A DNA stretch of 64,000 nucleotides from Promethearchaeota archaeon (GTDB lineage: Archaea; Asgardarchaeota; Lokiarchaeia; Sigyniarchaeales; SOKP01): positions 17,055 through 81,054 of the forward strand of contig JBHLLU010000015.1 in the NCBI GenBank assembly GCA_048938895.1, in the 5' to 3' direction. Both the position numbers and the translations under genes were made by a program. Positions 881 through 59,150 of the stretch are shown here, one piece after another; within the stretch, counting starts at the first letter, position 1; each line of letters opens with the position of its first letter. The notes below the pieces were generated by a model. The model saw only the letters and a program-made list of their open reading frames with translations, made no database searches and had not been told where the DNA came from.

Positions 881-1864
881 CTAAAGCGTCTCTATTACTC
901 TATAGGCAATATGGAAAAAAGCATCATTAACATTTTCTCCTGTTTTTGCACTAGTAAGAATAAAATGAAAACCATAGTTAAATGCAACATTCCTAATATC
1001 TTCTTCACTAATTAAATTTTCTTCTATCAAATCTGATTTATTTCCGACAATCACAATAGGAATATTCTTTTGTACTGAGCTATTAATATCATTATACCAT
1101 TTTTCAACACTTTTTAGATTATCCTGGCGAGTTCTATCGATTACAATAAATGCCGCATCAGCACCATTATAAAATTTTGTTCTGTATGGAGCCATTTGAA
1201 AACTTTGACCTCCAATGTCCCAAATAATAAAGTTCATCTTTACTTTGTCTGTCAAATCAACTGATTTCTTCGAAAGCTGCACACCAATAGTTGAGATGTA
1301 ATCTTTTTCGAATGTATTTTTTACAAATCTTCTTATAAGAGAGGTTTTTCCTACTTTAAAATCTCCAGTGAGTATTAGTTTATGAGAATATTCTCCTTCA
1401 ATACTTTGAAGTGAACCAGCTCTCGTCTTTGCTAATGCTTTAATTATTTCTGGAATTTCTGGGGAAACTTCCTCATTACCCTCTAGGATTAACTCAACTT
1501 TTCCTGCTATATGTTCAGAATATACTTTTAATTCAATGTCGCTTGTAGATTGATCAGCAACCGTAGTTAATATAGTTAACGGACCCTGCGAACAAAATGC
1601 AAATTTTCTCTCTCCTGTCATAGTTATATTAAAGAAATTTCCCTTACTCCCAAATTCACTTTTAATTCGTTCTATATAATTATCAAGAATTGCTGAAATT
1701 GCTCCAATAATCGAATCAGATTCTTCCACATCCCCTTCTTTAAAATCTGATACGATTATAAAGCCGTTTCGATCACATATAGCTACTCCTAATATCCCAT
1801 CAACTTCATTAGTATATTTTTTCAATATTTTCATTAGTTGTTCTGTATTTGGGAGTTTTTCCAT
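881..1864 (-). CDS. Roadblock/LC7 domain fused to Rab-like small GTPase
   Basis: N-terminal GILGVAICDRNGFIIVS...IIGAISAIL is roadblock-like. C-terminal G motifs: GDFKVGKTS, STIG, WDIGGQ, GNKSD, TSAK. Confidence 0.88.
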   Translation of the reverse strand: MEKLPNTEQLMKILKKYTNEVDGILGVAICDRNGFIIVSDFKEGDVEESDSIIGAISAILDNYIERIKSEFGSKGNFFNITMTGERKFAFCSQGPLTILTTVADQSTSDIELKVYSEHIAGKVELILEGNEEVSPEIPEIIKALAKTRAGSLQSIEGEYSHKLILTGDFKVGKTSLIRRFVKNTFEKDYISTIGVQLSKKSVDLTDKVKMNFIIWDIGGQSFQMAPYRTKFYNGADAAFIVIDRTRQDNLKSVEKWYNDINSSVQKNIPIVIVGNKSDLIEENLISEEDIRNVAFNYGFHFILTSAKTGENVNDAFFHIAYRVIETL

Positions 1865-2852: not shown

Positions 2853-4238
2853 ATGCCTAAAATCTCATTTATTGGTGCAGGATCTTTCGTATTTGGTGAA
2901 GCTGTGCTTACTGATATCTTAACTTTTCCAGCACTCAAAAAAGATACCATCGTTTGTCTTGAGGACATTGATCCTGGTCGTTTAGATATTATGTTCAAGT
3001 ATATGAATAAAATTGTTGAAGATAATTATCAGGACCTTAAAGATGTGCAAATAGAAAAAACCCTAAACCAAAAAAAAGCAATTGAGGATGCTAAATATAT
3101 CATAAATGCTATCCAGGTTGGATGGTTAGATGTGATGAAATATGATTTTGATATACCTTTAAAATTTGGAGTAACTCAATGTGTAGGAGATACGCTAGGT
3201 CCGGGAGGAGTATTTCGTTTCCTTAGAACTGTACCTGCATTGAAATCGATTATAGAAGACATTCAAGATATTGGATATAATGCTGGAAAAAATGGAGATA
3301 AACCACTTTTTATAAATTATACAAACCCTATGGCAATGAATACTTGGTACTGTAATACTTTATTACCAGATTCTACAATTGGTCTCTGTCATAGTGTTCA
3401 AAGCACATCTAAACTCTTAAGGGCTGCTATTGGTGTAAATAAAGAAGATTTCAGTTTCCTTTGTGCTGGTATTAATCATATGGCATGGTTTATTGAAGCA
3501 TGGTATAGAAATCAAGGGGATTCTACCTGGCAGGATGCTTATCCTGAATTAAAAAAAGAGCTGAATGAAAACCCAAGATTTAATAAATCTGTTAAGGTTC
3601 GCTTGGATATGATGAATGCGGTTGGTTATTTTGTAACTGAAAGTTCTGGACATCTTTCTGAATATTTACCTTATTACCGTAAAAGAGAAGATTTGCTTGA
3701 AAAATATAAGGGTGTTAATATGTATTATTCAAACTTAAAGCATGGATCTTATTACGATTTATGTGTTCAAATTGAAGGACAAGCAGAATTAAGATATAAA
3801 AGAAGATTAAAAAAGTCAAAGTTAAAAATTAAAAGAGGAGAGATTAAACCTTCAACTGAGTATGCATCACATATAATTAATGCAATTGAGACAGATAAGT
3901 CTTTTAGATTTAATGGAAATGTAATGAATAAACAAAGAAGTATAATAACAAATTTACCAGAGAACTGCTGTGTAGAAGTACCCGTATTTGCGGATCATCA
4001 CGGATTACATCCTCAAGGAAGTATTCAATTACCTACAATTTGCCAAGCGCTCTGCCTTTCAAATATAATGGTCCAAAAGGCAGCCGTTGAGGGAGTAATT
4101 GAATTGGATAAAGAAAAAATTTATCATGCAATATTGTTAGACCCGAATACGGCTAGTGTATGCTCTCCTCAAGAAATTCGAGACATGGTGGATGAAATGT
4201 TTGAAAAAGAGGCAAAATGGCTTCCGCAATTTAATTAA
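2853..4238 (+). CDS. melA: Glycoside hydrolase family 4 (NAD+/Mn-dependent alpha-galactosidase-like)
   Basis: KISFIGAGS, GDTLGPGG, NYTNPM, GLCHS, GINHMAW, TESSGHLSEY. Start moved to MPKISF (ATG 2853) from the track's 2799. Confidence 0.9.
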   Translation: MPKISFIGAGSFVFGEAVLTDILTFPALKKDTIVCLEDIDPGRLDIMFKYMNKIVEDNYQDLKDVQIEKTLNQKKAIEDAKYIINAIQVGWLDVMKYDFDIPLKFGVTQCVGDTLGPGGVFRFLRTVPALKSIIEDIQDIGYNAGKNGDKPLFINYTNPMAMNTWYCNTLLPDSTIGLCHSVQSTSKLLRAAIGVNKEDFSFLCAGINHMAWFIEAWYRNQGDSTWQDAYPELKKELNENPRFNKSVKVRLDMMNAVGYFVTESSGHLSEYLPYYRKREDLLEKYKGVNMYYSNLKHGSYYDLCVQIEGQAELRYKRRLKKSKLKIKRGEIKPSTEYASHIINAIETDKSFRFNGNVMNKQRSIITNLPENCCVEVPVFADHHGLHPQGSIQLPTICQALCLSNIMVQKAAVEGVIELDKEKIYHAILLDPNTASVCSPQEIRDMVDEMFEKEAKWLPQFN

Positions 4239-6166
4239 TTATTATTATTAATATAGTCTATAATGAATTTTCTATGTATGTCTGGTATTTTGTAAAGTTT
4301 AAAAACTAAATTATCAATTTCCTTTTGTATATCTGTAAATTTGTTATCTTCTTCCTTGTGTAAATCTAACAGAGTCTTAACTTTTAAAATTATTTGAGCT
4401 GCTAAATTTTTTTCTTTAACAGTCTGTGGAATACAAATAGGGAAATCTTTAATCTTTTCAATTAATATGCGTGGAAATAATTGCTTATAAGAACCAAATA
4501 GTTTTATAAAATAAAATGATAATAGTTTGGAATTTATAATGCCTAAAAAATACAAATTGTTAAATTCATCTATTGGTGATTTATAAACTCTTAGATTGTA
4601 GAAAGATTGAGAAGTTAATGAGAACTCTTTATCATAAGTTGCACAGATTAGGTTGTTTTGGGTTAACTGCCTAATAATAATATGATCTATATATAAATTT
4701 AAATCTTTATAATTAATCCCTGGTTTTTCTACTTCAATATATTTTGAACTCTTAATCTTATATCGATTAATTGAATCTATAAACTTGACATACTTTTGTG
4801 TATTCTCTTTGGGGGGTGATTCAAATATGATTTTTTCAACATTTTGCTTTTTAAGAGGTTTTTTGCAGTCAGGACAAAGGAATTCTCTTTGAGGAATGGG
4901 GTAAAAAGTTTGACAACTCTCACAAAAAATCACTTTTCCTTTCTTAGTCAATTCTACACCTCTGCTTATAAGGATTTTAAATCCTTTTTTCTTCATTAAA
5001 TCTTTTAATTTAGGAAACTGAATATTTAAATGATTAATTATGAAGCTATCTCCTTCATTTAGATGAATTAAATAATTATAATCCCACCCTTTTAAATCAC
5101 TCTGTCTTATTTTTCTATAATTTTGTCCCGAAATCTTAACTTTGATAAAGTTATTTTCTCTTTCTTGAAGATCATGTTCTTTTTCCAAAATGAGGACAAT
5201 GTTTGAGACAACAGGATCCTCAAATTGGGAACCAACTACATTAATTTCTTGTATCTTTGTATTGTTATATATATATTTCCTTAATATCGAACGATTTGAC
5301 AGTGCCAATAGTGAATCTGGAACAATATACCCAAGCATGCCTTCATTTTTAAGTAATCTTATACCAATTTCGATGAAAATCTGGTAATAATCATACTGTC
5401 CTTTACTTGTTTTGAAATTTCTATTCAATATTAATTTCTTTTGTTCGTGTGGGATATCTCTGATAAATAAATATGGTGGATTTCCTACCACGTAATCATA
5501 AACATTAGTGTCACTTAAATTCAATGAATTTGAATTTATTATGTTAAACAATGGAGGGAGAGATAATTTTTCATGATCTCTGATGATTTTTATTAATTCA
5601 AATAACTCAAACATAACATTGGCTTGACACAAAATACAGGAAACTGGATTTATATCTATGCCAAAAATATTTCTATTTACATTTGAAATTATATATTTTG
5701 CTTCTTCCGGTGAAACCTCAGAAAAATCTAGCTTATTGATCTTTTTTAAAATACTTTGGACTAAACGCCTAATAGTTACAATTATAAAGCTTCCTGATCC
5801 ACAGCTTACATCTACAAGTTTTTTAGTTTGAATATCCTTACCCTCTAAATAACCAACCGCATTTAGGATGTAGTCTACTATTATTTTTGGGGTATAAAAT
5901 TCACCTAATTTCTTTCTTTCATTTTGATCTAGTTTCTTCTCATAATACTTACCTAGTGAATTGAAATTTAATTCAAAGAGATTTGATTCACTTCTTTTAA
6001 CCTCTGTGCTATATTTTTCATCAAGATTTTCAAAATAATCTTCAAAATATCTATCCAGGTTGAGTGTAATATTAGATACCTTATAATGATCAAGGAGAAT
6101 TTGAATTAGGTTTTCACTTTTCATATATTCAATAAAATCATATATTAGGGAATAGTCAGAATTCAC
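4235..6166 (-). CDS. N6-adenine DNA methyltransferase (TaqI/Eco57I-like, gamma class) with C-terminal target-recognition region
   Basis: GEFYTP, DVSCGSGSF (motif I), GIDIN, VVGNPPY (motif IV), GIINSKLL in a TaqI_C-like region. Confidence 0.9.
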   Translation of the reverse strand: MNSDYSLIYDFIEYMKSENLIQILLDHYKVSNITLNLDRYFEDYFENLDEKYSTEVKRSESNLFELNFNSLGKYYEKKLDQNERKKLGEFYTPKIIVDYILNAVGYLEGKDIQTKKLVDVSCGSGSFIIVTIRRLVQSILKKINKLDFSEVSPEEAKYIISNVNRNIFGIDINPVSCILCQANVMFELFELIKIIRDHEKLSLPPLFNIINSNSLNLSDTNVYDYVVGNPPYLFIRDIPHEQKKLILNRNFKTSKGQYDYYQIFIEIGIRLLKNEGMLGYIVPDSLLALSNRSILRKYIYNNTKIQEINVVGSQFEDPVVSNIVLILEKEHDLQERENNFIKVKISGQNYRKIRQSDLKGWDYNYLIHLNEGDSFIINHLNIQFPKLKDLMKKKGFKILISRGVELTKKGKVIFCESCQTFYPIPQREFLCPDCKKPLKKQNVEKIIFESPPKENTQKYVKFIDSINRYKIKSSKYIEVEKPGINYKDLNLYIDHIIIRQLTQNNLICATYDKEFSLTSQSFYNLRVYKSPIDEFNNLYFLGIINSKLLSFYFIKLFGSYKQLFPRILIEKIKDFPICIPQTVKEKNLAAQIILKVKTLLDLHKEEDNKFTDIQKEIDNLVFKLYKIPDIHRKFIIDYINNNN

Positions 6167-6361: not shown

Positions 6362-7474
6362 GTGATTTTTAGCATAATTCTTATAATTATATCACCTTGT
6401 ATTTCCATTATTGGAATTTATTATTCTCTACTCAAAAGAGAGATTTTTGGAACTTATCTAAATACAGTTTTAAACATCTTACTCTATGTATTTTTTGGTA
6501 TCTTTTTTCTTCCATTATATACTCTATCAGCAGAAACCTCAATAGAAGAATCTATTGCTCTTTGGATATGGAAACTTTCCTTAATTTTTTGGATGATTTC
6601 AATAAGTCTCTTAAGTATTCAGCAAAAATTAATAATTAAGATTAAGAAAATATCAAACTTTCCTTCAATACTTTATGCTTTTATAGGTGGTATAATTATA
6701 AGCTTAGTTATCCTCCCTAGTTCTATTGAAATTTTACAGGGAAATGATAATGGTTATTATTATAGATTTAATAATTCAATTTTGCTTTTAAGTATTGTAT
6801 TTTTCAATATTTTTATTTTATCTCTCTTAATCTTTTATTTATTTAATAATTTAAGTGATCTCAGAGATAAAATAGCAGGAAGAAATTTAAGCATTCTTAC
6901 TGTTCAATTTGGCATGGTTATAGTATCTTTCACTTTAAATCTTTTTACTCAAATTACTATTTTTAAGTTTGTCTATTATGCAGTTTATTTTATAGGAGCT
7001 TTATTTGTAACTTACATAATGTACAAGCAACCCTCCTTATTTCTTGAACTTACTAATAAATTATTTGACTTTATTATCTTTCATAAGAGTGGTATTCTCT
7101 TATATTCTTTCAATTTTGAAACAAGGAAAGAAACTGATGATTCTCTCTTGAAAGGATCAATCCTTATTGGAATAAATCACATCTTAGCTAACTTTATAGA
7201 TAGGAAAGATCAACTAAGTCTTATAAAAATGAAGGATCGAGATTTGATTTTCGAATATGATAATAAGTATGATTATGCCATTCTTTTAACTACAAATCAT
7301 AAACATATCTTTATAGAAAAAGCTGTTAGGAGGTTTATGCGTAAATTTTCAGATTTAAATGGAGAAAAATTGAAAAATATGAAAGGTTTAATTGATGTTT
7401 CAGAATTTAGAAATGCAAAAGATCTAATTACAGAAATGTTTACACCTTACATAAAAAAAACTAATACCGAATAA
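6362..7474 (+). CDS. 7TM membrane protein with C-terminal longin-like domain
   Basis: About seven hydrophobic segments over residues 1-220, then FIIFHKSGILLYSFNF...LIGINHIL...LIFEYD...AILLTT, a longin-type beta-beta-alpha-beta-beta-beta-alpha pattern. Confidence 0.72.
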   Translation: MIFSIILIIISPCISIIGIYYSLLKREIFGTYLNTVLNILLYVFFGIFFLPLYTLSAETSIEESIALWIWKLSLIFWMISISLLSIQQKLIIKIKKISNFPSILYAFIGGIIISLVILPSSIEILQGNDNGYYYRFNNSILLLSIVFFNIFILSLLIFYLFNNLSDLRDKIAGRNLSILTVQFGMVIVSFTLNLFTQITIFKFVYYAVYFIGALFVTYIMYKQPSLFLELTNKLFDFIIFHKSGILLYSFNFETRKETDDSLLKGSILIGINHILANFIDRKDQLSLIKMKDRDLIFEYDNKYDYAILLTTNHKHIFIEKAVRRFMRKFSDLNGEKLKNMKGLIDVSEFRNAKDLITEMFTPYIKKTNTE

Positions 7475-7478
7475 AATC

Positions 7479-8621
7479 ATGTACATCACATTTTTTATTA
7501 TCTTAGGGATTGGATATTTTTTTATTTTTTGTGTAGCAATTTTCACCCTAATTCACATTGCTCGATATCATAAGAACTATGGAATAAAATTGATGGCTAT
7601 TCTGAATTTCCTAACAATCTTTAATATAATTATTATATATTCTTCGCTCTATATTATTTCAATTACGTTTTTCTTCTCTGAAACCCTTAATGTCATCTTA
7701 TGGAAATTCTCAATTCTCTCTGGACTAGTTAGTTTACTTTTAAATACAATTATTTTCACTTTTTTAAGACATTATAAAGAATTACCAGATTTTCCTTTTC
7801 TATATCTCATTGCTCTTTTTGGAATTGTTTCCGGTATTTTATTTTTCTCAAATTCTATTAGTGTAGATATTAATGCCTCTGGATCACCCCCCTATTTCAT
7901 TATAGATACATCTCAAATCAATTACAATTATGAAATTGTCACCGGAATATTAATAACTATTTTTCAGTGTTCAAATACAATTTATTATTTTATTCTCTCC
8001 AACCTTATCCATAAAAAATCCCGAAATAAAGATCTTACTAAAGGCTTGATCAAAAATACCTTATTTTTCCCAATCCCTATATTACTATATATTTTATACA
8101 TTTTTCTTCAATTACCGATATTTAGAGAATTACATATAATATCTCTATGGATAATTATCTATGGATACTGCATAATTTTATTAAGAGAGCCTGAAATGTT
8201 CATAGAATTAACAAATAAAATTTATTACATTAATATTTATCACAAATCAGGAATCTTACTTTACTCTTACAAATTTGCTAAATCTCCTGATGAAGTAGAT
8301 TCAGCTGTTTGGGGAAATATTCTTATTGGGATTAATTACATCTTATCTGAGTTTGTAGATAAACGAAATCAAATTGATCTTCTACAGACGAATAATACAG
8401 ATATAATTGTTAACTATGATGAGTTAGGATTTGCCATTGTTCTAATAACAAATAAAAAAAATCAAATTTTACAGAATTTAATGAATATATTTACTGAGAA
8501 TTTCAAAAATAAATTTCATGAGGAATTACTCGAAATTCAGGATTTAAATAAATTAATAAATGTCTCTGATTTCAACGGAGCAAAAGAGCTTATTGAACAA
8601 GGATTTCAGCTATATCTATAA
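7479..8621 (+). CDS. 7TM membrane protein with C-terminal longin-like domain (paralog of 6362..7474)
   Basis: Shares ELTNK, HKSGILLYS, ILIGIN.IL..F.D and LI.VS.F..AK.LI with the upstream gene. Intergenic gap is 4 bp. Confidence 0.72.
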   Translation: MYITFFIILGIGYFFIFCVAIFTLIHIARYHKNYGIKLMAILNFLTIFNIIIIYSSLYIISITFFFSETLNVILWKFSILSGLVSLLLNTIIFTFLRHYKELPDFPFLYLIALFGIVSGILFFSNSISVDINASGSPPYFIIDTSQINYNYEIVTGILITIFQCSNTIYYFILSNLIHKKSRNKDLTKGLIKNTLFFPIPILLYILYIFLQLPIFRELHIISLWIIIYGYCIILLREPEMFIELTNKIYYINIYHKSGILLYSYKFAKSPDEVDSAVWGNILIGINYILSEFVDKRNQIDLLQTNNTDIIVNYDELGFAIVLITNKKNQILQNLMNIFTENFKNKFHEELLEIQDLNKLINVSDFNGAKELIEQGFQLYL

Positions 8622-8726: not shown

Positions 8727-9311
8727 ATGGCTTTAAAATTTTGTCCAAAATGTGGAAATGAATTGGAACCGGATGCTTCTTTTTGTGACGCTTGTGGCGC
8801 AAGCTTGAAAGAGAGATCTGAGTTATCTCAACAGCCAGTTTCTGAAGTAAATAAAGAACCAGAAGTTGAACCAGAAGGAGTCATTTATGCTCCTTTTTTA
8901 AAAAGACTAATTGCTATCTTTTTAGATTCAATAATAATTGGTTTAATAGGTTCAACATTCTCATGGCTTTTCATTAGTCCATGGTATGGTTTAAATTTTT
9001 TTGATCCTTTTCGGGCGTGGTGGTTCACAATGCCTTTTGATTGGATCGTCGGTTTTTTGTATTTTTGGGGATTAGAAACACGAAATGATGGCCAAACTGT
9101 AGGAAAAATGGCTATGGGTATTAGAACTGTAGATGAACATACATTGGGACAAGCAACACCTAGTAATTATGCAATAAATAATATTCTTAAGCCATCTGGT
9201 CTAATAATAATAGATTTTCTCATTGGAATCTTTAAAAATTCAGGAGATCCTAAACTTAGACTAAGAGTGATGCAAAATATTTCAGAAACAGTTGTTATTA
9301 TGAAAAAATAG
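8727..9311 (+). CDS. Zinc-ribbon plus RDD family membrane protein
   Basis: FCPKCG...FCDACG at the N-terminus; APFLKRLIAIFLD and GQTVGKMAMGIR are RDD motifs. Confidence 0.88.
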   Translation: MALKFCPKCGNELEPDASFCDACGASLKERSELSQQPVSEVNKEPEVEPEGVIYAPFLKRLIAIFLDSIIIGLIGSTFSWLFISPWYGLNFFDPFRAWWFTMPFDWIVGFLYFWGLETRNDGQTVGKMAMGIRTVDEHTLGQATPSNYAINNILKPSGLIIIDFLIGIFKNSGDPKLRLRVMQNISETVVIMKK

Positions 9312-9774: not shown

Positions 9775-11175
9775 TTGATGAGTGATTCAAAACTGCAATC
9801 AGAATTGAAGTTTGAGGATTATGGGAGAAAACAAAAATGGAGTTTTGGTATGTCTTCATTTGCTTTGTTTTTCATAAATAGTGCATTTAATACATGGGTT
9901 TTTTCATTCTATTTTACCGCTGTTGGATTAGAAGCTTTAACAATTACCACTGCATTTGTATTATGGACGATTTGGAATGCCTTTAATGATCCTATGGTTG
10001 GATTTTTATCAGATCGAACAAAAACTCGGTGGGGTCGTCGTAGACCATATCTTTTTATCGGTTTAATCCCTGTACTTATCATTGAAGTAATATTATGGTT
10101 ACCACCTACAGGTAGTGAAATTCTAGGTTTTATTTATTTACTTATAATGTTAATCAGCTATGATACGTTTTATACAATGTTAGCATTACCCACAGATTCC
10201 CTTTTTCCTGAATTGTATACATCTGTAGAAGAAAGAGCAGAAGTAAATACAATAAGGCAAATTTTATCAACAATAGGGTTGATTATGGCGTTCTTAGTTC
10301 CAGGTATATTTATAGGAGACCTAAGTGAAAAATCTGGTTATTTAATTAATGGAATTGTTACATCGGTAATAGTGGGTGTTACAATGTTTATTTATTTATT
10401 ATGGGGTGCTAAAGAGCGTCCTGAATTTAAAATGGATCATCGTCATGAGTTTGGATTTTTCAGGGGTTTACGGTATACGTTCAAAAATAAAGGATTTATA
10501 CTCTATAGTATGATGTTTTTTTTATATGAGTATACTCTTCTCGTATTAGCCACTACTGTCCCTTTATACGCTCAAGAAGTACTTGGAGTAACTGATACAT
10601 TTCTAACTGCTTTATTATTGGGAGTAATGTTTATCATAGGGATACTTACAGTAATTATCTGGGGAAAATTGGATATAAAACTTGGAAGCTTGAAAGCATA
10701 TGCGATTTCTATAGTTGCTTATATTATAGCGTCAATTCCATTGTTAATTGTATCCAATTTCTTTACCTGTTTAATAACGGTGATATTTATGGGATTTGGA
10801 TTTGGGGGTATGTTATATTTTGTATACCTCATTATAGCAGATGTAATCGATGAGGATGAACTTAAGACGGGAGTAAGGCGAGAAGGAACATTTTTTGGGA
10901 TTACAAACTTTTTTATGAGATTATCAATGATATTATCAATTGTCACAGTAGGGTTAGTATTTACTGGGGCAGACTGGTCGGACTATACACCCAAACCTGG
11001 TGTAAACACTATTATTGGTCTTAAATTGCTTGTTTTCCTTTTCCCTGCTGTAGCACTTATAGCAACATTAATATGTTTATTATATTATCCATATACAAAA
11101 TCAAAGGTAGAAGAAATTAAAAACCAGTTAACAAAATTACATACGGAAAAGAGAGATAGGCTTAAATCCTCTTAG
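9775..11175 (+). CDS. MFS transporter, GPH/MelB family
   Basis: WNAFNDPMVGFLSDRTKTRWGRRRPY, ADVIDEDE, RREG; about 12 TM segments. Confidence 0.92.
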   Translation: MMSDSKLQSELKFEDYGRKQKWSFGMSSFALFFINSAFNTWVFSFYFTAVGLEALTITTAFVLWTIWNAFNDPMVGFLSDRTKTRWGRRRPYLFIGLIPVLIIEVILWLPPTGSEILGFIYLLIMLISYDTFYTMLALPTDSLFPELYTSVEERAEVNTIRQILSTIGLIMAFLVPGIFIGDLSEKSGYLINGIVTSVIVGVTMFIYLLWGAKERPEFKMDHRHEFGFFRGLRYTFKNKGFILYSMMFFLYEYTLLVLATTVPLYAQEVLGVTDTFLTALLLGVMFIIGILTVIIWGKLDIKLGSLKAYAISIVAYIIASIPLLIVSNFFTCLITVIFMGFGFGGMLYFVYLIIADVIDEDELKTGVRREGTFFGITNFFMRLSMILSIVTVGLVFTGADWSDYTPKPGVNTIIGLKLLVFLFPAVALIATLICLLYYPYTKSKVEEIKNQLTKLHTEKRDRLKSS

Positions 11176-11197: not shown

Positions 11198-12706
11198 TTA
11201 ATCTGATACCTCTGGTAAATTTAATGATTTATCTGAGTCTTCTAATCCTTCTAATCTGCGATACTCATCATAAGTGCGTCCAGAGACTATTTTGTGATAT
11301 TCATTCAACTTTTTTTCCACATATTCACCTAAACTTGGTCCTTTTTGAGTTTCTAATATTTCTTCGACCTTTTCTTTTGCTCTATCCATAATTTCTTTAG
11401 CACCTGCTCTTTGCCATACACCTCTTCTATCTCTATCAGCAAGTAAAGGGACAAAGAGTTCTTTCCGGGTATTCTTTGCTGTATGCTTCAAGCTTAAATA
11501 GGATTTTCCTGACGTGGCAACTTTTTTAATTTCCTCTATAGCAAGAGATTCTTTTTCAACTCTAATGCCTTCTAAACCTCTTTTTACAATACTACATAAT
11601 TCATCATCAATTACCAATAATTCTAAAGCTTCTGAAAGTGATGATTCATAAGTTCCTGCACAGGTTATATAGTTAATACCCGCATGAGCAGATGTAAACA
11701 AAGTCATAAATCTTTCATATCCATTTTGAATATCAAAACATTTAGATTCTGTAACCGCTCCTGGTCCTCGTGAAGGTATATCGTAATATCGAGCCATTTG
11801 AGCTGTAGCTGCGGTAATTAAACCAGTTTCTATGGAACCCCATGCTACATTACCCGTTGCTGGGTCCATTGGTGCTGACATTGATGAATAGAAAACAGGT
11901 GCACCCGGATTAATGAGTTGAGTAAGTACTATTGCTGAGAGTGTTTCCATATTAGCTTGAACAAGTAAACCCGCAAGAGTAACGGGCGCTGTTGAACCTG
12001 CACTAGCAGCAGGTGCTATTATTAAAGGTTGATTATATTTAGCAAATACAAAGAGACCATTTAATAGAATTTGTGTATGAATTAACGGACTCGTTGGATT
12101 ATAGAAGCCAATAAGTCTAGGTCTTTTTTTAAGTTCCTCTTCACTCCCGACGATAATAGAAAGCATATTAATCATATCCTGTGATGGAGTTCTCCCTAAG
12201 CATCCTAAACCATATGGTTTAAAGCTGTTTCTGGCCCAAGCATTGATTGCATGCCAATGTAGCTCTGTATATGGAACATCATTTGGCCACACATCTACAT
12301 GACTACAATGTATGTTTTTCAGACTATCAACGATACGAATCTGTTTGATCGTATCGGCAAGTGCAGTTTTCCTTATCCCTTTCTTATGGGTGCGGTCATA
12401 AATTTTTACAGGAGTACCTACTGTAGCAAAATTTACAGTGTTTGTATTTATGTCTAATTGGAATGATCCATCTGGTCCCCAAAGAGAGAAGGAATTTGGT
12501 ACGGTTTTAAGGTGTTTAACTACAAGATCGTGTGGAAATTGGACAAAATGATCATCCTGATTTAAAATACATCCCTTTTCTTTTAAAAAATCACGTGCTT
12601 CTGGAGACTCTACTTTAACTCCAATATCTTCAAGTAAATCAAGTGTATGATTATGAATTGTATCAATTTCTTCATTTGATAACACTTCTAATTTATTCAT
12701 TTTCAT
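11198..12706 (-). CDS. Trimethylamine methyltransferase (MttB) superfamily, non-pyrrolysine
   Basis: LLEDIGVKV, AGSTAPVTLAG, NPGAPV, QMARYYDIPSR, SKCFDIQNGYE, LVIDDE. No in-frame TAG. Confidence 0.92.
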   Translation of the reverse strand: MKMNKLEVLSNEEIDTIHNHTLDLLEDIGVKVESPEARDFLKEKGCILNQDDHFVQFPHDLVVKHLKTVPNSFSLWGPDGSFQLDINTNTVNFATVGTPVKIYDRTHKKGIRKTALADTIKQIRIVDSLKNIHCSHVDVWPNDVPYTELHWHAINAWARNSFKPYGLGCLGRTPSQDMINMLSIIVGSEEELKKRPRLIGFYNPTSPLIHTQILLNGLFVFAKYNQPLIIAPAASAGSTAPVTLAGLLVQANMETLSAIVLTQLINPGAPVFYSSMSAPMDPATGNVAWGSIETGLITAATAQMARYYDIPSRGPGAVTESKCFDIQNGYERFMTLFTSAHAGINYITCAGTYESSLSEALELLVIDDELCSIVKRGLEGIRVEKESLAIEEIKKVATSGKSYLSLKHTAKNTRKELFVPLLADRDRRGVWQRAGAKEIMDRAKEKVEEILETQKGPSLGEYVEKKLNEYHKIVSGRTYDEYRRLEGLEDSDKSLNLPEVSD

Positions 12707-12745
12707 TATTTTAACCTTAGCTTATGAATTGTTGATACATTTATT

Positions 12746-14044
12746 TTATATTTGTTTTAAAGCTTGGTCTAAATCAGAAATTAAATCTTCTGCATTTTCA
12801 AGACCAACAGAAAACCTAAAATGAGTTTTAGGGATATTCATAGCTTTAAGTTCCCATTTACTAAGATTGATTCCTGTCATCAAGGTAGTATATTCTATCA
12901 AAGACGTGGTATCTCCTAGGGATACTCCTACTTTAATTAACTTTAAGAGTTCAATGAATTTGTTACTATCATCTACTGATTCTAATTCAAAACCAATCAT
13001 CCCACTAAAACTTTTCATTTGTCTTTTTGCTATCTCATGCCCTGGATGAGATTCTAGGCCAGGATATGCTACATTCTTAATCTTTGAGTGGTCTTCTAGA
13101 TATTGAGCGATTTTTAAAGCATTCAATGAATGCCTTTCCATTCTTAAATCTAATGTTCTAATTCCTCGTAAAATTAACCAAGCATTGAAAGGGCTAAGCA
13201 CTTGACCTTGAGTTTCTAACCAGAAATATCTAATATCTCGGATTTGATTTTTTGGACCAATTATTGCTCCACCTAAACAATCTCCGTGTCCGTTAATATA
13301 TTTTGTTAAACTTTCAATTACAAGATCCGCTCCTAACTCTAATGGATGTTGTAATGCAGGTGATGCAAATGTGTTATCTACTATACATTTTCCTCCTACT
13401 TCATGTATAATATCTGAACATACTTTTATATCGATCACATCAATTGTTGGATTTGTTGGGGTCTCAAAAATAAGTAATTTTGTATAATCATTAACTTCTT
13501 TTCTCAATTGATCTAAATCATTTAGATCTACTATTTTGAAATCAACACCAGTTTGTGGATAAATTTTTGTTAACAGCCTATAAATATCTGCATATTGATT
13601 TTTATGCATAATGATTGTAGGGATATTTTCAGGATTATTCTGTGGTATTAAAGATCTAAGCTTATCGAGCTTTTTCCTCTCAACTCGTTCTTGTAATATA
13701 GATTGACAAGCTAGATGGACTGCTCCCATCCCTGAAGCGACGGAAATAGCTTCTTCACCCTTATGAAGTGTAGCTAATTTTTGATCAAGTGCTTGCAAAG
13801 TTGGATTTTCAGTTCTGGAGTAGTTATAGAAATTCTTTAAAAGTTCAGAAAAAGTATCGTAAGCAAATGATTTTGTAGCATAAATGGGAGTTCGTAAACT
13901 ATATGATGACTCTGGATAAGGATATTCTCCTGCGTGAATAGTTTGGGTGCTAAATCCCATTTTTGCCCACTTTTCCATATTTTTTTTATTTTTTTGAATT
14001 AAGATTTCCCTTTTTTCTTCAAAACTTGCACCATTCCTTTCCAT
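12746..14044 (-). CDS. PLP-dependent Cys/Met metabolism enzyme, methionine gamma-lyase-like
   Basis: YSRTENPT, ASGMGA, FETPTNP, VDNTFASP, ESLTKYINGHGD (PLP lysine), VSLGD, RFSVGLE. Confidence 0.9.
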   Translation of the reverse strand: MERNGASFEEKREILIQKNKKNMEKWAKMGFSTQTIHAGEYPYPESSYSLRTPIYATKSFAYDTFSELLKNFYNYSRTENPTLQALDQKLATLHKGEEAISVASGMGAVHLACQSILQERVERKKLDKLRSLIPQNNPENIPTIIMHKNQYADIYRLLTKIYPQTGVDFKIVDLNDLDQLRKEVNDYTKLLIFETPTNPTIDVIDIKVCSDIIHEVGGKCIVDNTFASPALQHPLELGADLVIESLTKYINGHGDCLGGAIIGPKNQIRDIRYFWLETQGQVLSPFNAWLILRGIRTLDLRMERHSLNALKIAQYLEDHSKIKNVAYPGLESHPGHEIAKRQMKSFSGMIGFELESVDDSNKFIELLKLIKVGVSLGDTTSLIEYTTLMTGINLSKWELKAMNIPKTHFRFSVGLENAEDLISDLDQALKQI

Positions 14045-14136
14045 ATTATCACTATTTTCAGTCTTATTTTTTAAACTAAATTTTTTTACAAAGCAAACAA
14101 TAATCTTAATATCTTATACCTAAAAAAGGAGATGTT

Positions 14137-14784
14137 ATGTCTTTAGAAGAAAAAATAGAAGAATCTATTGTTGCTTGGGATGAGGAAGGACTAAGAAAAA
14201 CGTGCTTATCCTCAATAGAAAGCGATAATGTAGAAGCTGCGGAGATATTAAGAATTATCGGAGGAATTATGAGAAAGATTGGCAAATTATTTGAGGAAGA
14301 AGAAATTTTCCTTCCTGATTTGATTGGTTCTGCAAATGTGGTGAAAAATGTTATTGATGATGTGCTAGATCCAATCATTAGATCCTCAGGTGAGAAAAGA
14401 GAGACGTTAGGAACCATTGTTTTAGGAACAGTAGAAGGGGATGTTCATAGCATCGGGAAAGATTTAGTTGCCGCTTTCTTATTTTCAAACGGATTTGAAG
14501 TGTTTAATTTAGGGGAAGAAGTACCTCCCGCAAAATACATTGAAAAAGCAGAAGAAGTTAATGCTCAAATAATAGGGCTCTCTTCTTTATTAACAATGTC
14601 CATGGATATACAAAGACAAGTGATTGAAGAATTAAATAAAAGGGGATTAAGGGATAAATATAAAGTTATAATCGGTGGTAGTCCCACATCTGAGGAATGG
14701 GCCGAAGAAATAGGTGCTGACGGTTGGGCAGATGATGCTATTGAAGCTGTTGAACTTACTATAAATCTGTTGCATAAAAAGTGA
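14137..14784 (+). CDS. Corrinoid (B12-binding) methyltransferase cognate protein, MttC/MtgC-like
   Basis: N-terminal cap domain with IFLPDL; GDVHSIGK (DxHxxG), GLSSL, IIGGSP, IGADG. Confidence 0.93.
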   Translation: MSLEEKIEESIVAWDEEGLRKTCLSSIESDNVEAAEILRIIGGIMRKIGKLFEEEEIFLPDLIGSANVVKNVIDDVLDPIIRSSGEKRETLGTIVLGTVEGDVHSIGKDLVAAFLFSNGFEVFNLGEEVPPAKYIEKAEEVNAQIIGLSSLLTMSMDIQRQVIEELNKRGLRDKYKVIIGGSPTSEEWAEEIGADGWADDAIEAVELTINLLHKK

Positions 14785-14794
14785 GGTAATAAAA

Positions 14795-16324
14795 ATGAAA
14801 TTAAACTATTTAGAACCGTTATCTAAGGATGAAGTTAAAATTATTGATTCTGCAGCAATTGAATTACTTTCTAATGTAGGAATAAAGGTTGATGCAGAGA
14901 ACGCTAAAAATTTGTTTATAAAATCTGGTTGTAAGATCGATAAAGACACTAATTTTGTTAAAATTCCTGAGAGTTTAGTGAAAGATAAGTTAAAGTCCGT
15001 ACCAAGCTCATTTAAACTCTATGGTTCTGATGGAAAATATAATTTTGAAGTTAATACTTCGAGTACTAAATTTGCGACTATCGGTACCCCTGTAAAAATT
15101 TATGATCCCTCTCAAAAGAGAGGAATAAGAAGAACAATTCTTGACGATACTATACAACAGATTAAGCTTGTAGATTGCCTGGAAAATATTGTATGCTCTC
15201 ACATTGATGTATGGCCTAATGATGTTAAAGTTACCGCCTTACACGCTCATTGCATTTACCAATGGTATAAAAATTCTAAAAAGCCTTACGGCTTGGGATG
15301 TTTGGGAAAATTAGCAAGTCAAGATATGATGAATATGCTCTCAATTATCGTTGGGGGAGATGAAGAGTTAAAAAAAAATCCAAGATTAGTGGGTTTCATG
15401 AACCCTACAAGCCCTTTACACTTACCTCAACTTATGACAAATGGGTATGAAATTTTTGCTAAATATAATCAACCAACAATTATCGCTCCAGAAGCTATGG
15501 CTGGAAGTACGGCACCTGTTACACTTGCAGGTCTACTCGCCCAAATAGTTGCCGAAACCTTAGCAGGGGCAGTTCTAGGACAGTTATACAATCCAGGATC
15601 TCCAATTTTCTTCGCAACAGTTTCTAATACAACAGATATGAGATCAGGAAATTCTGCTATCGGGGCAATTGAAACGGGATTAATCACAGCAGGGATGGCT
15701 CAAATGGCTCGATATTACAATATCCCCTCGCGAGGACCTGGGGGAGTTACTGATTCAAAAGTACTGGATATTCAAAATGGATTTGAAAGACTTCAAACAT
15801 TAATGCTTGCTGTACAAGCGGGAATTAATTATATAACCTGTGCAGGCACTTATGAAGCAACTTTGGTTGAGGCTTTGGAATTACTAGTAATCGATGATGA
15901 GTTAGCTAGTATCTGTTTGCGAGCAATGGAAGGAATTGATGTTAATGATGATACTCTTGGATTAGATGTCATTAAAAAAGTAGCAACAAACCCTAAAAAG
16001 GGAGTAACCTATTTGAGCGAAAAACATACACAAAAATATATGAAAAAAGAGTTATATATTCCAAAATTGATCGATCGTAATCGTCGTACCACTTGGAGGA
16101 AAAAAGGATCGAAAGATATCGTTGAACGGTCAAGAGATCGAGTAAATGAACTTTTGGAGAATTTTATTGCTCCAGATATTAATCCTGATATTGAAGCCAA
16201 ATTATTATCAATGATCAACGATATTGAAAAAAGGTCTATAGATTTATATAAAGAAATTGAAGGTATTACAGCAGATAGTGTTTCAATTGAACATGTGGAG
16301 ATCAAATCTGATAAAGAGAAGTAA
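14795..16324 (+). CDS. Trimethylamine methyltransferase (MttB) superfamily, non-pyrrolysine (paralog of 11198..12706)
   Basis: Same motifs as the paralog: FATIGTPVKIYD, CSHIDVWPND, AGSTAPVTLAG, DSKVLDIQNGFE. GAGGT Shine-Dalgarno-like sequence upstream. Confidence 0.92.
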   Translation: MKLNYLEPLSKDEVKIIDSAAIELLSNVGIKVDAENAKNLFIKSGCKIDKDTNFVKIPESLVKDKLKSVPSSFKLYGSDGKYNFEVNTSSTKFATIGTPVKIYDPSQKRGIRRTILDDTIQQIKLVDCLENIVCSHIDVWPNDVKVTALHAHCIYQWYKNSKKPYGLGCLGKLASQDMMNMLSIIVGGDEELKKNPRLVGFMNPTSPLHLPQLMTNGYEIFAKYNQPTIIAPEAMAGSTAPVTLAGLLAQIVAETLAGAVLGQLYNPGSPIFFATVSNTTDMRSGNSAIGAIETGLITAGMAQMARYYNIPSRGPGGVTDSKVLDIQNGFERLQTLMLAVQAGINYITCAGTYEATLVEALELLVIDDELASICLRAMEGIDVNDDTLGLDVIKKVATNPKKGVTYLSEKHTQKYMKKELYIPKLIDRNRRTTWRKKGSKDIVERSRDRVNELLENFIAPDINPDIEAKLLSMINDIEKRSIDLYKEIEGITADSVSIEHVEIKSDKEK

Positions 16325-58622: not shown

Positions 58623-59150
58623 ATGAAACATTATACTTTTAAAGTATTATTGTTGGGTGCCCCATCTGTAGGAAAAACTAGCATAGTTTATAGATATGTA
58701 AAGAATCAGTTCTCTCAAAATTACATTACGACTATGGGAATTAATTATTTAACTAAAGAAATCACGTTGGATGCAAAAGCTCAAGCTAAACTTGTAATAC
58801 TAGATATCGCGGGTCAAGAAAAATTTAAATTTCTGCGTAAGGAATTTTATGAGGGTGCTAATGGTGCCTTGGTCATATATGATCTTACTCAGTTGAAAAC
58901 ATATCAAGCGATTGATGGATGGCTTTTAGAAATGTTTGATATTTTAAAAGAGAATATCCCATTTATTATAATTGGAAATAAAGTGGATTTATTAGAAGAA
59001 ATACCGCGTACAATTGAAAAAGATATAGTAAGAAAATATGCTCAAAATAGAGATAGCATGTACATAGAAACTTCAGCTAAAACTGGTGAAAATATTAATG
59101 AAATTTTTACAGAATTAGCTCACCATATGATTAACCGCGTTTCTATTTAG
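58623..59150 (+). CDS. Rab-like small GTPase
   Basis: FKVLLLGAPSVGKTS, TMG, DIAGQEKF, GNKVD, ETSAK. No C-terminal prenylation Cys. Confidence 0.93.
   Translation: MKHYTFKVLLLGAPSVGKTSIVYRYVKNQFSQNYITTMGINYLTKEITLDAKAQAKLVILDIAGQEKFKFLRKEFYEGANGALVIYDLTQLKTYQAIDGWLLEMFDILKENIPFIIIGNKVDLLEEIPRTIEKDIVRKYAQNRDSMYIETSAKTGENINEIFTELAHHMINRVSI

Follow-up and report, generated by a model that had tools for sequence, protein, structure and literature searches.

Related yet distinct longin subunits are kept together in Fuzzy-Inturned (CPLANE), in Mon1-Ccz1, and in the TRAPP pair Bet5-Trs23, soluble proteins that are recruited to membranes peripherally and dock Rab GTPases. A second arrangement is seen in the SRX domain of SRalpha, a single longin that holds an Arf-like GTPase, SRbeta, at the membrane; there the membrane anchor is on the GTPase. 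Here we describe two adjacent genes, A and B, in a stretch of 64,000 nucleotides (the window) from a Promethearchaeota archaeon of the Lokiarchaeia type (Asgard; assembly GCA_048938895.1, contig JBHLLU010000015.1, positions 17,055 to 81,054, forward strand). Their products are predicted to be seven-transmembrane (7TM) proteins, each with a cytoplasmic tail that has the same fold as the longins of CPLANE, Mon1-Ccz1, and TRAPP (VIA-align Z scores of 13.1, 11.2, and 11.3, respectively). Like these systems, A and B are two related but distinct subunits; unlike them, they carry their longins as tails of integral membrane proteins. They also differ from SRX, the best Foldseek match, since the A/B longin itself bears the membrane anchor and comes paired.

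Asgard archaea encode dozens of small GTPases together with longin and roadblock proteins, and how regulators are paired with GTPases and recruited to the membrane is a standing question. Operons seldom help to match Asgard regulators to GTPases, according to the available text of Tran et al. (PMC10933270). An integral-membrane longin pair gives expressible domains of ~145 residues in which dimerization and GTPase partners can be studied. If A/B binds a GTPase, membrane-coupled control of small GTPases by longin platforms would predate eukaryotes and would once have been wired directly to a receptor-shaped 7TM module.

Architecture of the A and B proteins

The assembly that holds the window is 98.7% complete with 7.5% contamination, and the window has a G+C content of about 30%. 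The two genes and the parts of their products are as follows (TM, transmembrane; AF2, AlphaFold2).

6362..7474, + strand: gene A, 7TM-longin protein (open reading frame of 370 aa, GTG start)
6362..7027, + strand: seven-helix membrane bundle, A residues 1-222, N terminus outside (AF2 model, basic loops)
6722..6772, + strand: predicted extracellular beta-hairpin between TM4 and TM5, A residues 121-137 (AF2 model)
7046..7060, + strand: ELTNK linker from TM7 to the longin domain, A residues 229-233 (conservation)
7061..7441, + strand: cytoplasmic longin-fold domain, A residues 234-360 (domain model, Foldseek, VIA-align)
7479..8621, + strand: gene B, paralogous 7TM-longin protein (open reading frame of 380 aa)
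7479..8183, + strand: membrane domain, B residues 1-235 (hydropathy and alignment with A, the modeled protein)
8184..8618, + strand: linker plus longin-type domain, B residues 236-380 (41% identity to the C-terminal domain of A)

According to the list of open reading frames (ORFs), A and B are separated by 4 bases on the same strand. BLASTP aligns them with 95/317 identical residues (30%; E = 9e-38), and they are thus paralogs. This bears out an earlier reading made from the letters of the window, hereafter the sequence-only reading, which had proposed tandem paralogous genes 4 bp apart. Relatives of A number 334 at E ≤ 1e-3 (8,000 candidates scored), and therefore the A and B ORFs are not due to chance. 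In the 120 of these 334 that were listed, every name is an Asgard one or "hypothetical protein" except for one UniRef entry, "Histidine kinase N-term". Neither A nor B matches a Pfam or NCBIfam family; at E ≤ 1, Pfam gave TumE alone, at chance level. No longer, fused version of A was found at E ≤ 1e-3, which is weak evidence given the type of search.

Our best reading, to which we assign a probability of roughly 0.5, is that A and B form a heteromeric, membrane-anchored longin platform. The two proteins would be subunits of one membrane complex, each with a receptor-shaped 7TM bundle whose N terminus is outside, a short conserved linker, and a cytoplasmic longin domain. After the duplication that produced them, the longin domains would most likely pair edge to edge, as longin and roadblock domains do elsewhere, and the paired longins would make up a platform anchored on the cytoplasmic side of the membrane. 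We hypothesize that this platform docks a partner from the cytoplasm, the likeliest being a member of the organism's set of roughly 100 small GTPases, and that the state of the 7TM bundles sets where, or whether, the partner is held or switched. Heterodimerization, the identity of the partner, and any signaling are the parts of this scheme that we infer.

On the models, the assignment of the C-terminal domain to the longin fold is solid. The C-terminal domain of A was modeled alone from 48 sequences (predicted local distance difference test [pLDDT] 78.7, predicted TM-score [pTM] 0.76). The domain model runs b1 b2 a1 b3 b4 b5 a2 a3 (b, strand; a, helix) without an N-terminal helix, with strands at model residues 13-20, 25-30, 66-68, 73-79, and 84-90 and helices at 40-57, 95-117, and 125-143. 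This is the longin order, b-b-a-b-b-b-a-a without an N-terminal helix, as given in the available text of Tran et al. (PMC10933270). Foldseek with the domain model returned 16 PDB matches at E ≤ 1e-3, the best being SRalpha SRX (2fh5_A; E = 1.1e-4), with further SRX matches in 1nrj_A and 5ck3. From their titles and general knowledge we take all 16 to be longin-fold proteins, namely, SRX, the sigma and mu subunits of AP complexes, a COPI subunit, and Fuzzy. Just past this threshold, at E values of 1.2e-3 to 1.6e-3, come TRAPP and Mon1-Ccz1. Full-length A gave weak Foldseek rows (best E = 2.6e-3), and hence the domain model and VIA-align (VIA) were needed. When run against 48,161 chains, VIA placed longin domains in rows 1 to 29 (Z of 13.1 to 9.3, 113 to 137 residues aligned). 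The best match was Fuzzy (7q3d_C; Z = 13.1, root mean square deviation [rmsd] 3.2, 128 aligned); SRX reached a Z of 11.7, TRAPP 11.3 (3cue_C), Mon1-Ccz1 11.2 (8jbe_B), and a solved Lokiarchaeal longin 9.7, and the VAMP7 longins, with AP and COPI, were also among the best fold matches. The best roadblock domain, 3kye_A, had a Z of 9.0 over 95 residues and stops at model residue 114. Thus, by both VIA and Foldseek the domain is structurally nearer to solved longins than to roadblock domains, and the longin fold claimed in the sequence-only reading stands.

Sequence comparison gave fainter signals. A PDB sequence search with the profile of the C-terminal domain had weak matches only (roadblock 8yqk, E = 0.03; Trs23, E = 0.53). 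Below threshold, Pfam matched Sybindin in 11/120 relatives (best E = 0.0011) and Intu_longin_1 in 4/120, and NPR2 was absent among the 25 listed of the 29 families matched by these 120 sequences. An Atlas feature search with the C-terminal domain (scores of 0.81 to 0.78, below 0.9) returned clusters in which 22 to 34% of the members carry Fuz_longin_1, a lead only. The start of the domain, HKSGILLYS, is present as the sequence-only reading described it, and eight of its residues (H241, S243, G244, I245, L246, L247, Y248, and S249) reach 90% conservation or more across the 120 relatives.

The membrane part was taken from an AF2 model of full-length A built on the 120 aligned relatives (pLDDT 81.9, pTM 0.75), which places TM helices at residues 2-24, 32-55, 63-92, 99-117, 139-163, 170-196, and 199-222. 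Hydropathy likewise gives seven membrane segments for A, and six clear segments plus one weaker one for B, whose BLASTP alignment with A spans residues 62-364; the expectation of about seven helices per protein thus holds. Basic loops of A, read from the sequence, lie at residues 25-31, 93-98, and 164-169. The TM4-TM5 loop, SIEILQGNDNGYYYRFN at residues 122-136, is predicted to fold into a beta-hairpin with strands at 122-126 and 131-136, as had been suspected from the letters. Residues at least 90% conserved in the 120 sequences are G30, S56, W70, S73, G110, S121, Y132, N138, R168, and F183 in the TM part, of which S121, Y132, and N138 belong to the hairpin region, and L230, T231, and N232 in the ELTNK linker, confirming the conserved linker that had been noted; A-type and B-type linkers are 0.63 identical.

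In the model, the bundle is arranged as in G protein-coupled receptors (GPCRs), with seven helices, N terminus out and C terminus in, in the shape of a receptor, which supports the membrane-receptor part of the sequence-only reading. All of the top 50 VIA rows for the bundle are of the GPCR type, 49 receptors and one de novo GPCR-like design, with Z scores of 17.1 to 13.8 over 194 to 223 residues and identities of 5 to 14%. The best, a GABA-B receptor (9jqx_A), has a Z of 17.1 and an rmsd of 3.5 with 223 of 225 residues aligned. For helical bundles the arrangement alone yields a VIA Z of about 13 to 14; this background and the low identity mean a GPCR-like shape with no demonstrated descent. 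No Pfam 7tm family was matched at E ≤ 1 by A, B, or the 120 relatives, so that sequence homology to any GPCR class was not detected. What is shared with the GPCR fold, including class C obligate heterodimers such as GABA-B, is the seven helices, the N-out/C-in orientation, the 223-residue superposition, a beta-hairpin in the TM4-TM5 loop, and, for GABA-B, the use of two paralogous subunits. GPCRs are marked by DRY and NPxxY motifs. These are not among the conserved residues, and the output of A/B would be the fused longin rather than a heterotrimeric G protein.

The sequence-only reading had also likened the membrane part to HisKA_7TM, and this likeness fell away. The two have in common that they are prokaryotic 7TM modules at the N terminus of a signaling protein, but a search with PF16927 found no match among the 120 relatives (E ≤ 1) or anywhere in the genome (E ≤ 10), while control genomes do match. 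The HisKA_7TM label on relatives comes from automatic names only (UniRef, Atlas). A kinase-fused form of this 7TM was not found, although this is weak evidence.

Could the bundle instead be a transporter, a channel, or a lipid-handling protein whose activity the longin tail reports or regulates, that is, a transceptor? The GPCR fold match concerns shape only, and the same longin domain occurs on MFS-like proteins with 12 helices. These make up 6 of the 28 relatives whose architecture was scanned (out of 150 listed representatives and 1,873 in total), with scores of 22.7 to 32.2 bits, below the Pfam cut-off of 33.4. However, no charged residue inside the membrane is among the positions of the TM part conserved at 90% or more, and no transporter fold appears in the top 50 VIA rows. 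We consider such a transceptor very unlikely.

Retention and covariation of the pair

The family is widespread in the phylum: 195 of 400 surveyed genomes match A at E ≤ 1e-5, among them 124 of the 134 from the window's own family. Counts of genomes with both types are based on 150 of the 360 rows of A matches. On these, at least 39 genomes have an A-type and a B-type gene; in 37 of them A immediately precedes B in the same orientation, and in 2 the genes lie on separate contigs. B follows A in 26 of 30 fetched loci. In the other four, the locus is cut by a contig end (two cases), B has in-frame stops (G228), or no intact ORF was recovered. The two types are distinct orthogroups, with own-type scores of 336 to 805 bits versus cross-type scores of 108 to 170 bits across the 30 loci, and the order methyltransferase(-), A(+), B(+) is found in 20/20 larger loci from five genera. 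The conservation of the A/B pair, which was to be expected if the earlier proposal was sound, is therefore supported for one Asgard family, and two distinct longin subunits are kept together as in platforms of the Mon1-Ccz1 type.

The exception is a genus (g2) in which the syntenic position holds one gene, for 378 aa, whose distance to A is about the same as that to B. In a maximum-likelihood tree of 49 rows, in which other members of the family, on long branches, serve as the outgroup for reading, the g2 copies branch before the A/B split (support 98/97), and the A clade (100/99) and the B clade (100/100) have matching internal order. Because the g2 copies branch before the split and A and B are each monophyletic, the tree indicates one duplication after g2 split off, with both copies kept in every other sampled genus. 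On this phylogeny, the pair is an ancient, retained duplication.

Retention could also mean that A and B are separate sensors specialized for different inputs, each acting alone or as a homodimer, and that they are adjacent because of a shared promoter or inertia. One gene suffices in g2, the A-B gap in relatives is about 34 to 220 bp and not 4 bp, and identity between the TM parts of A and B is down to 0.23, a strong divergence of the kind expected for different inputs. Set against this, both copies persist, always with A before B, in each of the five other sampled genera (20/20 loci), and type-specific residues and covariation both point to the longin domains. The longin domain is the better conserved part within each type (A-A 0.73 and B-B 0.78, versus 0.44 and 0.56 for the TM part). 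At 16 positions, A and B each have a fixed residue of their own (at least 90% within the type). All of these positions are in the longin domain, and seven of them cluster at 264-266 and 285-290, at the start of a1 and in the b3 region. Elements a1 and b3 are those by which longin and roadblock domains dimerize. The A-B distance-matrix correlation (r = 0.915; 15 genomes) is the highest of 10 gene pairs, and the partial r given two neighboring genes is 0.81, versus 0.20 to 0.49 for control pairs in the same 15 genomes. In 20 genomes, the partial r is 0.79 between the longin parts and 0.47 between the TM parts, neither value being reached in any of 2,000 permutations. We therefore regard separate sensors as an unlikely account of the pair.

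Candidate partners of the longin domains

If the A/B longins form a platform, what does it hold? Of the solved longins nearest in structure, most have a small GTPase as a direct binding partner, as judged from entry titles: Fuzzy-Inturned with Rab23, Mon1-Ccz1 with Ypt7, TRAPP with Ypt1, and SRX with SRbeta. Coupling of the A/B platform to a small GTPase is plausible. The gene-context link of A/B themselves to a GTPase is weak. Besides a Ras gene at 58623..59150, a candidate in the window is the following gene.

881..1864, - strand: roadblock(weak)-Ras fusion GTPase, 4.5 kb from A (Pfam Ras, E = 1.5e-38; Robl_LC7, E = 0.029)

The sequence-only reading had called this gene a roadblock-Rab fusion; it belongs to the Ras family, and the roadblock part is weak, below the cut-off.

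A closer association is seen in paralogs of the pair. On a different contig of the same genome lies a second tandem pair built in the same way, and the next gene downstream, in the same orientation, encodes a Gtr1/RagA-type GTPase (Pfam, E = 4e-23). Orthologs of this pair have a Rag-like gene behind them in 4/4 loci of genus g1. Their neighbor in 11/12 loci of genus g12 is a convergent Ras-family gene (183 to 186 aa; Pfam, E = 1.1e-41); the twelfth locus is a short contig. The paralogous pair thus adjoins a Rag-like or Ras-like GTPase gene in 15/16 loci, in two arrangements.

Two features of this second pair and its neighbor are recorded here in their own right. The frame of the Gtr1/RagA-type gene (L035:2752-3759; contig C33 of genome G000, outside the window) stays open ahead of the P-loop but contains no ATG, GTG, or TTG there. 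Read from an isoleucine codon, the gene encodes 321 aa, the length of most of the 120 listed homologs, and translation likely starts at a non-standard codon. The TM-domain profiles of A/B and of the paralogous pair match only themselves in the genome at E ≤ 10. The TM4-TM5 loop of the second gene of that pair (residues about 118-133) reads YEVIQG where A has IEILQG, possibly an extracellular hairpin motif common to both pairs although their TM profiles miss each other.

Inputs from the lysosomal membrane reach Rag GTPases through SLC38A9-Ragulator and LYCHOS/GPR155-GATOR1. The likeness to the archaeal pairs is one of outline only: a polytopic membrane protein presents or binds modules of the roadblock or longin kind, through which a Rag-type GTPase is controlled; those systems are separate eukaryotic proteins, and here it is the paralogous pair that precedes a Gtr1/RagA-type gene. 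In a more far-reaching version of our reading, the archaeal receptor would itself serve as the GTPase platform: upon a signal from outside or from the membrane, the longins fused to a heterodimeric, GPCR-shaped 7TM sensor would act directly on a Rag-, Arf-, or Rab-like GTPase, either recruiting or switching it. We find this version doubtful. If true, receptor-to-G-protein signaling and the SLC38A9 and LYCHOS inputs to Ragulator/GATOR-Rag would have in it a one-step equivalent and possibly a precursor.

The longin tails might also bind something other than a GTPase. Candidates are helical or solenoid proteins, which the AP sigma and mu longins bind, motifs of the SNARE or cargo kind, and a component common to the two-component pathways in which kinases bear this same domain. 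The presence of AP, COPI, and VAMP7 longins among the best fold matches agrees with this, as does the occurrence of the same domain at the C terminus of 8 of the 28 scanned relatives, which are of the kinase type (PAS, HisKA, and/or HATPase_c), and of a PAS-HisKA-HATPase kinase in this genome. So do the lack of a genome-wide enrichment of longin genes beside GTPase genes (see below) and the form of the b1-b2 loop. A GP motif at the end of this loop marks GTPase-activating protein (GAP)-type longins (FLCN, NPRL2, and SMCR8), according to the available text of PMC12290439. In 33 aligned C-terminal domains, the residue after the invariant G244, which precedes b2, is I, V, or T and never P, and no arginine is invariant or forms a column of at least 90%, position 242 being K or R. 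The direct GTPase contacts of the closest solved longins and the 15/16 loci in which the paralogous pair adjoins a GTPase gene speak for a GTPase instead, and we judge a non-GTPase partner to be rather improbable. Because the GP motif is missing and there is no invariant arginine, a scaffold, effector-like, or guanine nucleotide exchange factor (GEF)-like role seems likelier than that of a folliculin-type GAP.

A number of results weigh against a heteromeric GTPase platform. As to the proteins themselves, the GPCR-like Z of the bundle is only slightly above the helical-bundle background, and none of the curated longin models in Pfam scored above its cut-off. As to pairing, the working single copy in g2 indicates that a homomer is viable, the focus on a1 and b3 was picked post hoc with the data already in view, and the covariation analysis had two genes only as controls. 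Moreover, paralogs under similar constraint may be expected to covary to some degree, and for this reason the A-B covariation supports a heteromer without proving it.

The remaining points concern the GTPase. An ortholog of the roadblock-Ras gene lies within 7 kb in 15/20 relatives, but the whole block, with hisB, GH4, methyltransferase, RDD, MFS, and MttB genes, is collinear over at least 16 kb in relatives. General synteny thus explains its nearness to A. Its partial correlations with A and B (0.60 and 0.51) are barely higher than those of the controls (up to 0.49). The genome has 89 Ras-family matches and, by a purpose-built profile, 107 small-GTPase ORFs, and it is because of this richness that 20% of random 1.1-kb intervals fall within 5 kb of a small-GTPase gene. 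Among its 22 longin-domain ORFs, 6 lie within 5 kb of a small-GTPase ORF, versus 0.20 for random intervals, and 2 lie within 500 bp, versus 0.064 at random; hence, an enrichment of GTPase neighbors of longin-domain genes was not found in this genome. Of the more distant loci of the family, 0/14 have a GTPase within 1.5 kb.

On contig C37 of this genome (41029-44259, outside the window), an 880-aa ORF with this longin-type domain (E = 1.4e-10) ends 22 bp from a 190-aa small-GTPase ORF on the same strand.

The wider family and the neighboring genes

Searched against 1.84 billion proteins, a profile of the C-terminal domain matches 1,873 cluster representatives at E ≤ 1e-3. Besides the kinase-type and MFS-like relatives, 12 of the 28 scanned have no family, one has chance-level matches alone, and one, the stand-alone P0192, matches Fuz_longin_1 at 19.9 bits, below the cut-off of 26.1. 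Further tandem pairs of 7TM-longin genes, once a triple, occur in at least six other genomes from other genera and families (G143, G140, G175, G141, G281, and G371, among them loci L056, L064, and L060).

Asgard NPRL2-like longin domains fused to two-component signaling domains are described in the available text of Liu et al. (10.1101/2020.10.19.343400), and the kinase-fused longins seen here fit that description. The 7TM-longin proteins reflect the same kind of domain shuffling, since the A/B longin type also ends PAS-HisKA-HATPase kinases, and they differ from GAP-type longins in having no GP motif. The text of Liu et al. makes no mention of 7TM-longin fusions or tandem pairs, which its figure or supplementary tables may list. 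In its available part, a 2026 preprint (10.64898/2026.10.28.762692) has separate entries for longins, GPCR-like clusters, and 7TM proteins in a list of Asgard-eukaryote families. A full-text literature search found no published 7TM-longin fusion, and supplementary tables may contain the family.

Two genes flank the pair in the window.

4235..6166, - strand: Eco57I/N6_Mtase-type DNA methyltransferase, divergent from A (Eco57I, E = 3.6e-24; N6_Mtase, E = 8.9e-20; TaqI_C, E = 2.3e-14)
8727..9311, + strand: zinc-ribbon plus RDD membrane protein, downstream of B (RDD, E = 1.7e-12; Zn_Ribbon_1, E = 4.5e-9)

The methyltransferase gene is the most constant neighbor, directly upstream of A and divergent from it in 20/20 relatives, and its product looks like a DNA N6-adenine methylase by its family matches. 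The RDD gene is present in the loci of 13/20 relatives. Farther downstream, two genes for MttB-family methyltransferases (Pfam, E = 9.5e-102 and 4.7e-104) flank genes for a Cys/Met pyridoxal phosphate (PLP) enzyme and a B12-binding protein at 11198..16324, which by its gene content looks like a corrinoid methyl-transfer cluster. An MFS_2 transporter gene (9775..11175) adjoins this cluster, and the cluster is collinear in relatives.

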